A stretch of DNA of 64,000 nt, taken from positions 1 to 64,000 of the forward strand of contig JAHLVW010000058.1 in assembly GCA_019058275.1 (NCBI GenBank), in the 5' to 3' direction. Each line of letters begins with the position of its first letter. The stretch's first letter is position 1. The position numbers were made by a program, and so were the translations under genes. Source of the DNA: Candidatus Heimdallarchaeota archaeon. GTDB taxonomy: Archaea > Asgardarchaeota > Heimdallarchaeia > JABLTI01. The notes below the pieces were generated by a model. The model was not told the DNA's origin. It was given only the letters and a program-made list of their open reading frames with translations, and did no database searches. Positions 28,362 to 33,537 of this stretch are shown here, piece by piece.

Positions 28362-28889
28362 TTAATCGAATTTAGAAATTTTGTCTAAAGATAATCGAGC
28401 AATTTCATTGAAAACTAACTCAACTCCTAAACCATTCGCAGAAGAAGTCTCAATATATCTGATAGCATTGTATTTCTTTATTGTATCCTCAACAATATCA
28501 TCTGCAATTAGTGTATCTCTCGGTAAATCGCTTTTTCCACCAACTAAGATTATTTCAGTTTTTGTATTTTTATCAACAAAACCATACCAAGTATCTAAAC
28601 CACCAATAGATAAGGCTCGAGTTAAATCAAACATTAAAACAGCAACAAGTGCTCCTCTAAAATAATTATCGAAAATACCCATTTGTTTGAATTGTTCTTG
28701 CCCACCACAATCCCAAACGCTTAAAGAAATGTCTCTTCCTTGATGACTCATCTGATGTATGTGAAAACCAACACCAATTGTGAGTTTTGTTGTATCGATA
28801 AATTCTCCTGTTAGATAACGTTGAATCAGTGTAGTTTTTCCAACACCACCATCTCCACCAAACACAACTTTAGCTATTATTTTCGACAT
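28362..28889 (-). CDS. Rab/Ras-like small GTPase (175 aa)
   Basis: G1 GDGGVGKT, G2 LTIGVGF, G3 WDCGGQE, YFRGA, G4 GGKSD, G5 ETSS. ATG at 28889 follows GGTGG. No C-terminal Cys/CAAX. Confidence 0.92.
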   Translation of the reverse strand: MSKIIAKVVFGGDGGVGKTTLIQRYLTGEFIDTTKLTIGVGFHIHQMSHQGRDISLSVWDCGGQEQFKQMGIFDNYFRGALVAVLMFDLTRALSIGGLDTWYGFVDKNTKTEIILVGGKSDLPRDTLIADDIVEDTIKKYNAIRYIETSSANGLGVELVFNEIARLSLDKISKFD

Positions 28890-29034
28890 TGATGCGTCCC
28901 ACCAAAGTAATTTATCAACATATATTTTGTAATAACAAATCAATAGTGCAATATTATTTAATATAAAGCTATTCGTTTTAACAAATAGCTTTTCAAAAAG
29001 CTTCAAAATAATAAAAAAATAAAGAGGAGATTGA

Positions 29035-29838
29035 CTAATGTATCTTTTCAATGGAAACATTAAGTCTATCAAGAATTTTGGACATTTCATTAATTTCAGT
29101 AACTGAAACAACTTTGAGTCTGTTTTTGAAAACACTAGAATTTAATTCTGATGCACTTTTATAGATCTGTCTTCTTCTCCAAACAGAAGGATCTGGATGA
29201 TAAAAAAGAATTGATAAAGTATTTTTGCTTTTATCAGCAACATAGAAGACATCTGTTGCTGGGATTTTCTTGCCAATTAATTCTTTTGGTGAGCCATCTT
29301 CAAGGATTGTGAAAATTCTTGGTAGTTTGCCTGAGAATAATAATCCCATTTTCTTAGAAAGCTCTTGAAGATTAGCGTGTGTTAAATCTCTTTCAGAAGT
29401 TATATCCCTAACGATAACAGAGAAGTATGGCTTAATTAAACCATAAGCATCTAAGATTTCTCGAGTATAATCTTCGTTAAACAATAAGAAGAGAATGCAT
29501 TTTCGACCAAATTCCATTATGCGTTGGTCTTCAGATGCCTCAGCTTCAACATCGAAAGTAATTGCCATTGCACGTAAATTACTAGCATCTGGAACAGGTA
29601 AGGGACCAAATGATCTTTTATCATCCATTGTGTCAAAGATTTGTGCTTTTTTCTCTTTCATTGTTTTGTTTGAAGCCCCTTCATCTAAACCTACAATTGT
29701 CATTCCTTCTACAGCTAACGTAAGAGTTTGCTCTTCTTTAAGATCTGTATCATTATAAATGACTGAAGGTCCAGTATCTTCAAATGTTACAAAGACAATT
29801 CCCAGTAAGTGTTCTTTTTTCGATTCCAATCCAGACAT
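29035..29838 (-). CDS. Putative uDENN/longin-domain plus gelsolin-like domain fusion protein
   Basis: N-terminal GIVFVTFEDTGPSVIY (uDENN F..GP hairpin), FGPLPVP and DQR...GRKCILF. C-terminal RIF...DVFYVAD...S..RR....ASELN...V..V.E matches the gelsolin-repeat pattern. Confidence 0.6.
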   Translation of the reverse strand: MSGLESKKEHLLGIVFVTFEDTGPSVIYNDTDLKEEQTLTLAVEGMTIVGLDEGASNKTMKEKKAQIFDTMDDKRSFGPLPVPDASNLRAMAITFDVEAEASEDQRIMEFGRKCILFLLFNEDYTREILDAYGLIKPYFSVIVRDITSERDLTHANLQELSKKMGLLFSGKLPRIFTILEDGSPKELIGKKIPATDVFYVADKSKNTLSILFYHPDPSVWRRRQIYKSASELNSSVFKNRLKVVSVTEINEMSKILDRLNVSIEKIH

Positions 29839-30009: not shown

Positions 30010-30975
30010 TTAAATGGGTATGCCATCATCTTTATTTTTGCTTACTTCGATGAGATTTTCTATAGCAATTCTGCCATTTTCTCCTTCCTCTATGAAGATA
30101 TCTAATACCATTTCTGCGATTTGCTTTGCTTTACCTAGAGCACCACCACGTTCTACAAACAAGCAGCATATTTTTTGCATTCTTGATACCAGAACCATTG
30201 AATAGTCACCTACAGTTACAACATCAAGAAAACTTGAATCCTTAAATAGAGTTCTAGTCATGGAATTTAACGCTGAAAGCAAACCAGTGATTAAAACAGC
30301 ATCCTGTTCTCTATCTGTAACATTCGAAAATTGAGCATCAAAATCAAGCAAACCATTGACATCGTAAATTAACGCTCTGTGAACTGTAACAGTTTCATGA
30401 TATCCTTCATAGGCCATTAGTTTGGAAACAAACCAATCAAAAGCACGATAGATGCCTTCACCTGAAATTATAGTACAAATTTCAAAATGGAAAGATCTCG
30501 GTTCAGTTGGTGATGAGATTCTTGTTAAATCAAAATAGTTCATAACTTCACTAAGATTGATTTTTCGTTCAGGATCTCTTTTATTGATCATAACTAAAAG
30601 AGGAACGTTTGAAGGTAATTGATCAACAATAGTATGGAAAGGTTCTATGGATTTTTGTAAACTTTCTTCTGATTCTCCATTAATAGTGTAAACAATTCCA
30701 TCTGTAATGGACAAGAAATATTCTACAATCTTTTCATCATTTAGAATATCCTTGCCAAGATCGATAAGTTTGAACCATTCTGTACCGTAAGAGATATCAA
30801 CCCAATTCATAACAGTGTCAGGATAGACTTTATCACGACTAGAAGAAAGCAAATGATAAAGCAAAGTAGTCTTACCAGAACTCTTTTCACCCATCAGTAA
30901 AACCCAAGGAATAGTGTGATCTTTCTTTTGCAAATAAGTTGAAAATGCTTCGATTGCTTTGCGTGAACCTTTCAT
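30010..30975 (-). CDS. Degenerate Arf-like GTPase fused to a C-terminal longin/roadblock-like domain
   Basis: G1 GEKSSGKTT, altered G3 IDLGKD, G4 NKRD, GEGIYRAFDWF; C-domain ALIYDVNGL...DAVLITGLLSAL...VTVGDYSMVLV. Confidence 0.75.
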   Translation of the reverse strand: MKGSRKAIEAFSTYLQKKDHTIPWVLLMGEKSSGKTTLLYHLLSSSRDKVYPDTVMNWVDISYGTEWFKLIDLGKDILNDEKIVEYFLSITDGIVYTINGESEESLQKSIEPFHTIVDQLPSNVPLLVMINKRDPERKINLSEVMNYFDLTRISSPTEPRSFHFEICTIISGEGIYRAFDWFVSKLMAYEGYHETVTVHRALIYDVNGLLDFDAQFSNVTDREQDAVLITGLLSALNSMTRTLFKDSSFLDVVTVGDYSMVLVSRMQKICCLFVERGGALGKAKQIAEMVLDIFIEEGENGRIAIENLIEVSKNKDDGIPI

Positions 30976-31111: not shown

Positions 31112-32074
31112 TTAAGAGATAGCATCAAGCGGGAAGTAATTTGAGATTACTTTTTCTAATGAAACAGAGAGACCTTTAAGGTAATCCATCTCAATTGCTT
31201 CAAAGATACGACTTGCTATTGTGAGAACTCTACTGACAGGATCATTGACATCAATCAAAATACCCATCACAAAAAGCTTATTCTTAATGATAACAAGCTG
31301 GTAATGTCCCATAATTTCCAAAACAGTGACAGCTTCGTTGTAATCTCTCATCTGTTTTGCAAATCGTTCTGTTTCTTTAATTGATTCCCGATATGCAGTA
31401 GCTACATCTGCTTGCTGAGTCGGGCTACCAAAGATGGCTTGATCAAGTTCTTTACCATTAGAATCAAAAACAACAGCTGAGAAAATCTTAACATGCCAAG
31501 TAGGGATAGCTTTATCTTTAGAGACAATATTAACTAACCAATCCCAAGCAGGGAATAATCCCTCGCCAGATAAGGCAGAGCACCTGAACATATTGAAAGC
31601 ACGATCTTGGCGAGTCATTTTTTGTAATTCAAGGGTTTCCATAACTTCAACAGTTGAAGCAGCTTCTTCTTTATCAGATTTGTTGACCAAGAAAAGAATG
31701 GGAGCACTCTGATCAGTATTTTCTAAAGATTCGTAAAAGACGTCTTTAGCCAATTGAAAGCGCTTCTTATCAGCAGCATCAATGACAAAGACAATAACTT
31801 GAGCTTTAGTAATAAATTTCTTCCACAAAGTCTTACGAATTGGTGCATGACCACCAAGATCCCAAACAACGAATTCTAAAGTACGATAACGATAAAGTTC
31901 AATATTAACGCCAAAAGTTGGCTTGGAAAGGGTGTACTCAGAACGTAAAATTCTTTTCATGATTGTTGTCTTCCCCGCTGCATCCAGTCCTATTATCGCT
32001 ACATGTTGTTTTACTGGTCTTCCATCTGCCCCTTTTCTTTTGTCTGCGCTGATTAATCTTCTTAGGAAACTCAA
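31112..32074 (-). CDS. Arf/Sar1-like GTPase with N-terminal amphipathic helix and C-terminal longin/roadblock-like domain
   Basis: MSFLRRLI N-helix, G1 GLDAAGKTT, G2 PTFG, G3 WDLGGH, FVIDAAD, G4 NKSD, G5 CSA, GEGL...WDWL; C-domain AVVFDSNGK...LEIMGHYQLVIIK. Confidence 0.88.
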   Translation of the reverse strand: MSFLRRLISADKRKGADGRPVKQHVAIIGLDAAGKTTIMKRILRSEYTLSKPTFGVNIELYRYRTLEFVVWDLGGHAPIRKTLWKKFITKAQVIVFVIDAADKKRFQLAKDVFYESLENTDQSAPILFLVNKSDKEEAASTVEVMETLELQKMTRQDRAFNMFRCSALSGEGLFPAWDWLVNIVSKDKAIPTWHVKIFSAVVFDSNGKELDQAIFGSPTQQADVATAYRESIKETERFAKQMRDYNEAVTVLEIMGHYQLVIIKNKLFVMGILIDVNDPVSRVLTIASRIFEAIEMDYLKGLSVSLEKVISNYFPLDAIS

Positions 32075-32412: not shown

Positions 32413-33537
32413 TTATTGATTATAAGCTTCATTGAATTGTTCTTTCACTGATTCTGCTATACTCTCAGGAGTTGCAGCTGCGATTGGTTCAAAATGTAAA
32501 AGTTCCATGAATCCAATATCTCCTGTATAATTTGGCATAAGGTTTGGTCTTGTGACAATTCTTAAGTTAATTCGAAATGAATCATAATGATCTTCATTTA
32601 TTGGTCCTATATACATAGCCACATTCACTGATGTTGCTCCTCTTCCAATGTAAAGAGCTTTTAGTGCCTGTGAAATGCCCTTTGCCAATTCTGTACTTTC
32701 TTCTTTTGTAAATACAGATATATCTGTTTTTGGAATTTTAACAATGCCAGTTAGTTCATTTTTCCCTAAAGGTGAGTAAGTTGCTATCCAAGCCATAAAG
32801 TTATTTTCAGTAATAAACCGTTCATTGATTTCCTTTTCAGCTTCAATAAGATCTAACCAATAATTTGAACCATTTTTTGCATATTGTTTACTTCTACCCA
32901 TTAGAATTTCGGTGTATTTTGTTGGTTTAACATCTTGAATAATTTGAATATGTGGATGTATTATTGATGACGCGGATGGTGGGAGATAATTGAAATTGAT
33001 TGACGGATATTTTACAGATTTATCAAATTTATTCACAGCTTTAAAATATTTAATTGAACCTGCTATTGCATCTTGCCAAATTTCAGGTGTAAAATCTTGC
33101 AATGGGGTAAAATGCTTATCTCCTAAAGTACCTACCGCATGGTATTGTGAAAAAACAAATAAGTTTGGAAATAAAGTGAAAGTTCCTTGTTTTATCCTAT
33201 CACCTAATCCTAATTCTTTGGGAAATCTTGGAGTAGATTTCTCAACATTTTCAGGACAGAAAAAACATTTCTTAGAAGAATTCTCGATAACAGATTGTAG
33301 ATTTTGCTCGTAATTTTCACTAGGCATCGTAGCTTGTTTAACACGATCTGCTCGCAATTTGTTAATTCTTGAGTAATGATTTGTTAAAGGATCTTTTCTG
33401 TACTCGATTTTTTGCTCCACAAGCTTGTAGCTGTCTAAAGGACTATGGATTTTTGCAGAACGAATTACTTTTTCGAATTTAATCTTACCTACTTTAACTT
33501 TTATATTTTCTTCGTTTTTCTTTACTTTTTCTGGCAT
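32413..33537 (-). CDS. galT: Galactose-1-phosphate uridylyltransferase-like (HIT/GalT family)
   Basis: EYRKDPLT, CFFCP, FPNLF and ASSSIIHPHIQ (HxHxQ) motifs. Confidence 0.8.
   Translation of the reverse strand: MPEKVKKNEENIKVKVGKIKFEKVIRSAKIHSPLDSYKLVEQKIEYRKDPLTNHYSRINKLRADRVKQATMPSENYEQNLQSVIENSSKKCFFCPENVEKSTPRFPKELGLGDRIKQGTFTLFPNLFVFSQYHAVGTLGDKHFTPLQDFTPEIWQDAIAGSIKYFKAVNKFDKSVKYPSINFNYLPPSASSIIHPHIQIIQDVKPTKYTEILMGRSKQYAKNGSNYWLDLIEAEKEINERFITENNFMAWIATYSPLGKNELTGIVKIPKTDISVFTKEESTELAKGISQALKALYIGRGATSVNVAMYIGPINEDHYDSFRINLRIVTRPNLMPNYTGDIGFMELLHFEPIAAATPESIAESVKEQFNEAYNQ

Follow-up and report, generated by a model that had tools for sequence, protein, structure and literature searches.

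A Heimdallarchaeial protein joining a GAP-type longin to a gelsolin-fold domain, encoded beside Rag-like GTPase pairs, as a candidate regulator of eukaryote-like GTPase switches

The arginine fingers of the known longin-type GTPase-activating proteins (GAPs) are R147 in SMCR8, R164 in FLCN, and R78 in NPRL2. Longin arginine-finger GAPs act on Arf and Rag GTPases, and the longins of SMCR8 and C9orf72 cup ARF1 (PMC8213707). The GAP longins FLCN, NPRL2, SMCR8, and C9orf72 carry a GP motif, defined at the end of the loop before β2 (PMC12290439); the motif is reported there to be missing from non-GAP longins and to accompany an arginine finger in some Heimdallarchaeial longins, described in 2025 as candidate GAPs. 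NPRL2-like and FLCN-like Asgard proteins had been noted in 2020/21, the GTPase of that FLCN-like operon not being of the Rag family. To date no Asgard Arf regulator has been identified (PMC11914678), and PMC12290439 likewise states that regulators of Asgard GTPases have not been identified. Three gelsolin architectures have been described in Asgard archaea: ProGel, 1DGelX, and 2DGel (PMC7444086). Here, we analyzed a gene of a Candidatus Heimdallarchaeota archaeon (contig JAHLVW010000058.1, positions 1 to 64,000; this whole 64,000-nucleotide stretch, with a G+C content of ~31%, is called the window) whose product, the target, appears to join a FLCN/NPRL2-type longin to a gelsolin-fold domain and is encoded next to a pair of Rag-like GTPases. 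We estimate a probability of roughly one half that it is an arginine-finger GAP, or a GAP subunit, for the active member of that pair, and propose it as a candidate regulator of eukaryote-like GTPase switches.

29035 to 29838, minus strand: target gene for the longin-gelsolin protein, an ATG-started open reading frame (ORF) of 267 amino acids

The ORF is a real, strongly conserved gene. Its relatives at 77 to 93% identity form 33 clusters with identical length and N terminus, and the nearest ones in the database carry the labels Heimdallarchaeota or Asgard group. No Pfam family matched the protein at E ≤ 1. Searched exhaustively with HMMER, a set of 1.84 billion representatives yielded 80 clusters (50% identity) of distant relatives at E ≤ 1e-3.

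The target was modeled with AlphaFold2 on a 37-sequence alignment (A2), with a mean predicted local distance difference test (pLDDT) score of 84.5 and a predicted template modeling score of 0.70, and the model was compared exhaustively with 48,161 PDB chains by VIA-align. Its two domains are considered in turn.

29326 to 29817, minus strand: N-terminal longin domain, amino acids 8 to 171, FLCN/NPRL2/SMCR8/C9orf72-like (model and structure searches)

In the model, DSSP assigns two β-strands (residues 11 to 19 and 24 to 29), an α-helix (35 to 52), three β-strands (75 to 82, 85 to 98, and 112 to 121), and two α-helices (122 to 145 and 154 to 168), which is the β-β-α-β-β-β-α-α order of a longin; an insert at about residues 53 to 74 is poorly modeled. 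The top match to residues 5 to 171 is the longin of the Lokiarchaeal Roadblock-Longin protein (8yqg_B, Z score 13.5 over 139 residues, root mean square deviation [RMSD] 2.9), followed by chains of the C9orf72-SMCR8 complex (7o2w_A, Z 11.5), Lst4 (4zy8_C, Z 11.4), the folliculin complex (6nzd_H, Z 9.5), and GATOR1 (8fw5_B, Z 9.3). Foldseek returned chains of the SEA complex, GATOR1, and the SMCR8 complex, and a structure search of the ESM Atlas returned C9orf72, NPRL3, and DENND11 together with Asgard clusters partly tagged Folliculin or NPR2; searching the same atlas by features gave "hypothetical protein" clusters only. The element order and the Z scores of 13.5 to 9.3 to Asgard and GAP-complex longins agree with the FLCN/NPRL2-type N-terminal domain that a preliminary description, made from the DNA alone, had proposed.

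Three conserved elements stand out in this domain:
29767 to 29778, minus strand: GP motif D21-T-G23-P24, just before β2 (conservation count)
29590 to 29607, minus strand: family signature G78-P-L-P-V-P83, at the start of β3 (conservation count)
29503 to 29544, minus strand: β4-β5 loop AEASEDQRIMEFGR with D104, R106, G111, and R112, holding the candidate arginine finger (translation, DSSP)

Motifs were counted over the 80 cluster representatives, with denominators of 77 or 78 where given. G23 and P24 are each conserved in 77/78 and D21 in 72 representatives; the turn is formed by G23-P24 in the model, with β2 running from residue 24, a placement that accords with the GP motif as published (PMC12290439). 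In the signature, G78 is kept in 76/77, with P79, P81, and P83 present in 67, 73, and 64 representatives, respectively. Within the β4-β5 loop, D104 is found in 76/78, R106 in 74/78, and R112 in 68/77, and G111 in 72 representatives. R106 sits in a short helical turn (residues 105 to 110) between β4 and β5, R112 is the first residue of β5 in the model, and the local pLDDT of the loop is 90 to 94. These two arginines had been singled out in advance as candidate fingers, and both are conserved, R106 within the modeled loop and R112 at its end; translation also reproduces the strings and residue numbering quoted for them, placing D104, R106, G111, and R112 in AEASEDQRIMEFGR. The computable features on which the preliminary description had staked its refutation beforehand, that is, conservation of the arginines, their position in the loop, and a C-terminal domain of gelsolin type (see below), were all found.

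The two arginines differ in how far they extend across relatives. More distant paralogues in the same genome retain R106 and vary at R112 (K, T, or Y). One paralogue, on contig C84 (46770 to 47444, minus strand), is without both loop arginines, reading ASDDPIILERGKFC; it could serve as a noncatalytic partner, as FNIP, NPRL3, and C9orf72 do in the eukaryotic heterodimers. The same genome also encodes two proteins that pass the Pfam Folliculin cutoff:
contig C55, L086:1285-2619: FLCN-like longin-DENN protein, 444 amino acids
contig C69, L087:1261-2400: FLCN-like longin-DENN protein, 379 amino acids

Both contain the GP motif, and their loops read ...TARGRRR... and ...KLRGGQR... (A-R-G-x-x-R and L-R-G-G-Q-R). 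Aligned by hhalign, the target family and these proteins are colinear, with GP on GP, at a weak probability of 11 to 36%; in this same weak alignment R112 falls on the arginine before β5, and the "RG" arginine lies at most two residues from R106. A phmmer search of PDB with an FLCN-like protein of this genome gave nothing useful. Because distant paralogues keep R106 and the "RG" arginine of the FLCN-like proteins is at most two residues away, R106 is the favored candidate for the finger and R112 a less likely one.

29047 to 29325, minus strand: C-terminal gelsolin/cofilin-fold domain, amino acids 172 to 264 (model, VIA-align, profile)

Residues 172 to 264 form a separate α/β domain in the model. 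The best structural match is the actin-bound Thorarchaeal ProGel (7c2f_D, Z 10.2, 86 of 88 residues, RMSD 2.7), ahead of adseverin, gelsolin, villin, fragmin, and Asgard 2DGel domains (Z 7.7 to 8.7, with many gelsolin, villin, adseverin, and fragmin matches spanning Z 7.3 to 8.7) and the gelsolin-like domain of Sec23 (Z 7.1). Independently of the model, the A2 family profile recovered ProGel from the PDB sequences (7c2f_B, E 2.6e-4, over chain residues 3 to 92, its whole length), in keeping with the gelsolin-type domain first proposed. By hhalign, the family also matched a gelsolin-domain protein of the same genome (probability 77%, E 1.9e-5), whose own Pfam Gelsolin match is subthreshold (E 0.009). 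Since the fold matches and the model-independent profile match agree, reading the target as a two-domain protein is sound, and the prediction of a FLCN/NPRL2-type longin joined to one gelsolin-fold domain is supported.

The conservation of this domain differs from that of the longin. It was found in 53 of the 80 representatives, its best-kept position being N233 (64%), and no conserved arginine was found in the domain across these 53 members, although it is nearly invariant inside the orthologue group of the target. A finger delivered from the gelsolin-like domain in the manner of Sec23, for which the preliminary description had cited Sec23 as precedent, is therefore unsupported, as no arginine of the domain is kept across the family. 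Where ProGel has L-W-R-G the target has F-Y-H-P, the W-x-G/DWG motif being replaced by F-Y-H-P-D-P.

These results bear on two other views of the protein. It could be chiefly an actin regulator, with the gelsolin fold binding monomers or filaments like ProGel and 1DGelX and the longin recruiting or gating it in response to a GTPase. The closeness of the domain to actin-bound ProGel by both structure and profile and its near invariance among orthologues point this way, as do the in vitro regulation of actin by Asgard gelsolins (PMC7444086) and the coprecipitation of an ARF GTPase with Lokiactin and gelsolins in L. ossiferum (PMC13716822). However, it is the longin domain on which most of the family-wide constraint falls, the target has neither the DWG/W-x-G motif nor a Pfam Gelsolin match, the actin affinity of ProGel itself is very weak (dissociation constant, 337 μM; PMC7444086), and actin binding is not known for gelsolin-like domains such as that of Sec23; we regard a chiefly actin-directed role as unlikely. 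The C-terminal domain might instead be a reduced DENN-core-like α/β domain, and the target a small-scale version of the FLCN/C9orf72-type longin-DENN proteins. A eukaryotic C9orf72 cluster, which ranks first among the ESM Atlas matches, does span residues 6 to 266 (195 residues, template modeling score 0.56 by query), but the PDB structures of C9orf72, FLCN, NPRL2, and DENND1A align to residues 5 to 171 only, all strong matches to residues 172 to 264 are gelsolin-family domains, and the family profile recovers ProGel by sequence. About 95 residues are, moreover, too short for cDENN plus dDENN, and the true FLCN-like proteins of the same genome are distinct, with 379 to 444 residues, so that a DENN identity seems very improbable.

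The target gene lies in a co-oriented row on the minus strand, in the order ArfA, ArfB, target, and a Ras/Rab-like GTPase:
31112 to 32074, minus strand: ArfA, apparently active Arf/Sar-type GTPase ending in a longin/roadblock-like domain (Pfam Arf, 2.4e-42), the proposed client
30010 to 30975, minus strand: ArfB, degenerate paralogue with the architecture of ArfA (Pfam Arf, 7.9e-18; Gtr1_RagA, 3.6e-4)
28362 to 28889, minus strand: Ras/Rab-like small GTPase of about 175 amino acids with DCGGQ (Pfam Ras, 1.5e-33, from residue 89 of the long ORF on)

ArfA and ArfB are tandem paralogues of 320 residues. ArfA has the conserved motifs GLDAAGKT, PT[FY]GVN, DLGGH (with a Sar1-type histidine), NKSD, and SAL, and its model shows an N-terminal amphipathic helix, an Arf/Sar-like G domain (Z 21 to 22 against Arf6, Arf1, and Sar1), and a C-terminal β-β-α-β-β-β-α domain. 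Because the ArfA model aligns with LokiRagO (8yl2) over residues 22 to 285, covering both domains, its architecture is Rag-like. ArfB retains the P-loop and NKxD and has lost DxxG and the switch II Q/H ("IDLGKD" in family f1 and "IEA[GD]EE" in f3; f1 to f7 denote families of Heimdallarchaeial genomes), and it looks like a hydrolysis-dead partner. Prediction of a complex of ArfA, ArfB, and the target with two GTP gave a median of 0.54, with 0.00 for unrelated partners and 0.42 for a control in which ArfB was replaced; it fell short of the mark and was counted neither for nor against binding.

The linkage recurs across genomes, which are related and do not represent independent cases. In f1, the family gene adjoins the ArfB and/or the Ras-like gene in 12/12 genomes, with the full row at every locus that is long enough. 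In f3, judging from coordinates, the genes of ArfA, ArfB, and the family protein form a tight operon (intergenic gaps, 0 to about 10 nucleotides) in at least 23 of 31 genomes; the three proteins are 38 to 41% identical to their counterparts in the window. In a maximum-likelihood tree, copies from f1 and f3 group together with the unlinked C41-type paralogue (100/99), and the linkage is therefore ancestral in that clade, one duplicate having later left the cluster. The f6 copies form a separate deep clade (90/92), and in 22/22 f6 genomes the next gene after the family member encodes a Gtr1/RagA-family GTPase (PF04670, 4e-32), its start codon often overlapping the preceding stop. At L072 (G058:C87:85506-90254), the only f6 locus that was fully read, the family gene stands between a divergent (314-residue) and a canonical (310-residue) Gtr1/RagA-like GTPase. 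The neighboring GTPase pairs of the two clades have proteins of about 315 residues each with Rag-like architecture. Adjacency to a Gtr1/RagA-family GTPase was also seen for G397, P0047, and P0049.

In one relative the two partners are fused. P0106 (L071:5001-6794, from a Promethearchaeota metagenome-assembled genome), recovered on a single contig by the exhaustive HMMER search, is a single 597-residue frame in which the longin-gelsolin module (residues 3 to 272, hhalign E 9.4e-41; its GP motif reads G-T) is followed by a Gtr1/RagA G domain (residues 286 to 473). A word-indexed database search, which is weak evidence on this point, scored no longer fused relatives, and P0045 (2,183 residues with 13 matched stretches) was rejected as a relative because it is a repetitive protein. 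A functional tie between the family and Rag-architecture GTPases is the best-supported conclusion of the whole analysis, because the linkage recurs in two deep clades that differ in GTPase subfamily and in gene order and, in addition, as a fusion. The link to neighboring GTPases is thereby far stronger than the DNA alone could have told.

By profile search, the family occurs in 200/400 Asgard genomes, including 81/82 of the other Heimdallarchaeial genomes searched (families f1 to f7). The family is expanded in this class, most of whose genomes have from 3 to at least 6 full-length copies, and Asgard lineages beyond this class mostly show one weak match each. The genome of the target has full-length paralogues on contigs C41, C84, and C117, a longin-only copy on C55, and weaker partial profile matches on C5 and C98. 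A further paralogue, at C54:82139-82919 (minus strand), is split into a 155-residue longin ORF and a 102-residue gelsolin-type ORF 4 nucleotides apart; the split may be natural, or it may mark a frameshift or a pseudogene.

Several neighbors were seen in passing. The Ras-like gene is absent in f3 and linked only within f1, where every sufficiently long locus has it downstream; a 183-residue gene after the f6 cluster was rejected as its counterpart. The ORF called for it in the window (28362 to 29135) overlaps the target gene because the called start is a far-upstream GTG, the Ras domain beginning only at residue 89, and the true start is likely the Met at residue 83 (window position 28889). 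The upstream gene for a 374-residue protein (32413 to 33537, minus strand) was rejected as a second longin subunit (hhalign probability 0.1%); its product, without a Pfam match, contains HPHIQI, a motif like that of HIT/GalT-type nucleotidyl transferases. At two f4 loci (L016:2329-2958 and L017:763-1413), a gene for a protein of about 210 residues without a Pfam match adjoins the family copy; its similarity to the ArfB profile is weak (E about 1.5e-4) and confined to the C-terminal longin/roadblock-type portion, and it may represent a longin/roadblock partner encoded on its own. L081:3002-5187, which lies downstream of P0047 and the adjacent Rag-like gene, encodes a protein of at least 993 residues with Arf and Gtr1_RagA domains.

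A number of observations weigh against reading the target as a GAP. The eukaryotic longin GAPs are heterodimers of two longin subunits, and the target cluster has no second free-standing longin gene; the second longin could be supplied by the C-terminal domain of ArfA or ArfB, or by a paralogue, for example, C84:46770-47444. Most longin/roadblock platforms are guanine nucleotide exchange factors (GEFs) or scaffolds, not GAPs. The N-terminal domain has no significant profile match to Pfam PF11704 Folliculin, PF06218 NPR2, or solved longins: among 69 family N-terminal domains there was one match to Folliculin (E 0.15), and their profile recovered no longins from the PDB sequences, only chance helical matches. 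The assignment to the GAP longins therefore rests on the predicted fold and the motifs. Residues 167 to 267 gave no match to Pfam PF00626 Gelsolin and are missing its W-x-G/DWG motif. As to the genetic link, the P0106 fusion, on one contig only, could result from a lost stop codon, and the remaining paralogues in the target's genome have no GTPase neighbor, so that only part of the family shows GTPase linkage.

Much of this would also suit a protein that binds the Rag-like GTPases as a noncatalytic platform, namely, a GEF, effector, or scaffold, whose arginines serve binding or stability. Linkage and fusion indicate a functional tie without its direction, the platform role is the usual mode of longin/roadblock proteins (Mon1-Ccz1, TRAPP, DENN, and Ragulator), and the cluster offers no gene for a second longin subunit; a GEF role has been proposed by Liu et al. 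for the Asgard FLCN-like module. However, the combination of GP turn and loop arginine, which PMC12290439 reports as specific to GAP longins and missing in the GEF type, is near-invariant in this family, and we consider a platform role possible but rather doubtful.

The analysis shows the fold, the motifs and how well they are kept, and the linkage to, or fusion with, Rag-type GTPases; from these, for the favored reading as an arginine-finger GAP, we infer direct binding and GAP chemistry along the following lines. The longin domain would dock on the switch face of ArfA, the active Arf/Sar-type subunit, and R106 (less likely R112), as the putative acting arginine, would enter the nucleotide pocket and complete the active site together with the Sar1-like histidine. 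Insertion of the arginine would switch ArfA off; its partner, ArfB, looks unable to hydrolyze GTP. The gelsolin/ProGel-fold domain, which has no invariant residue of catalytic type and is for that reason more likely an adaptor, might tie the module to actin filaments or another protein surface as its presumed ligand. The preliminary description had likewise suggested a possible link to actin or to a coat-like function.

A wider and quite speculative proposal, to which we assign little probability, is that the triad of an active Sar1/Arf-like GTPase, its dead paralogue, and the longin-gelsolin protein represents an archaeal forerunner of both the Rag-GATOR1/FLCN axis and the Sar1-Sec23 pair, coupling nucleotide state to actin. 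On the Rag side, an arginine-finger longin GAP is proposed to act on a heterodimer joined by C-terminal longin/roadblock domains; on the Sec23 side, a gelsolin fold would accompany the GAP for a His-type GTPase and could supply the domain lacking in Asgard Sec23-like proteins.

Asgard archaea have many Arf-, Rag-, and Ras-like GTPases, and here gene order points to a specific GTPase-regulator pair; Tran et al. found gene order seldom informative in Prometheoarchaeum MK-D1. Two deep Heimdallarchaeial clades retain a protein with the hallmarks of longin GAPs beside Rag-architecture pairs, and in one case it is fused to such a GTPase. If the GAP activity is true, the relationship between Rag/Arf GTPases and longin GAPs would predate eukaryotes, and the gelsolin fold would be a first candidate for a physical link from small-GTPase signaling to the Asgard actin cytoskeleton. 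The fusion had been called unfamiliar in the preliminary description; this holds for the union with gelsolin, which appears undescribed, but not for the longin class with GP motif and arginine, already published (PMC12290439). Full texts on Asgard archaea, longin, and gelsolin contained no description of the fusion or the operon, which supplementary tables may mention, and what appears to be new is limited to the fusion with gelsolin and the setting beside Rag-type genes.

Among known systems, FLCN (with FNIP), NPRL2 (in GATOR1), and SMCR8 (with C9orf72-WDR41) have in common with the target the longin fold, the GP turn, and the conserved arginine or arginines in the β4-β5 region, and they likewise have Rag- or Arf-type GTPases as genetic partners. 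They carry a DENN or NPRL2-type C-terminal domain, whereas the target has a gelsolin fold in its place and only 267 residues; its loop reads D-x-R-x5-R, in contrast to R-G-x-x-R in the FLCN-like proteins of the same genome. The Asgard FLCN/SMCR8-type longins (Traffic 2025, PMC12290439) resemble the target in the motif pair, the lineage (notably Heimdallarchaeia), and the proposed role as ArfR or Rag/Gtr GAP. The passages of that report covered here leave their client GTPase open and name no gene-neighborhood partner; the word gelsolin does not occur in its full text, the supplement on its 15 proteins lying outside this search.

With the Thorarchaeota ProGel and other Asgard mini-gelsolins (7c2f, 7c2h, 7whf, 7whg), the target shares a single gelsolin/cofilin fold of about 90 residues, at residues 172 to 264, for which ProGel is the only significant sequence match and the best structural one. 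Unlike in those proteins, the gelsolin domain of the target is C-terminal to a longin, an architecture outside ProGel, 1DGelX, and 2DGel, and W-x-G/DWG is lost. Sec23, the Sar1 GAP of COPII, shares with this system a gelsolin-like domain and a client with a catalytic histidine, ArfA having DLGGH. Its five-domain architecture (zinc finger, trunk, β-barrel, helical, and gelsolin-like) is not that of the two-domain target, and its finger comes from the gelsolin-like domain, whereas the candidate finger of the target is in the longin domain. Finally, the operonic Rag-like GTPase-roadblock pair of Prometheoarchaeum MK-D1 (PMC10933270) and LokiRagO/LokiRagM (8yl2, 9m28) are close counterparts of ArfA and ArfB, with adjacent genes and C-terminal longin/roadblock-type domains; ArfA and ArfB differ from these Rag pairs in that their G domains are of the Arf/Sar type (Pfam Arf, 2.4e-42) and one copy is degenerate.

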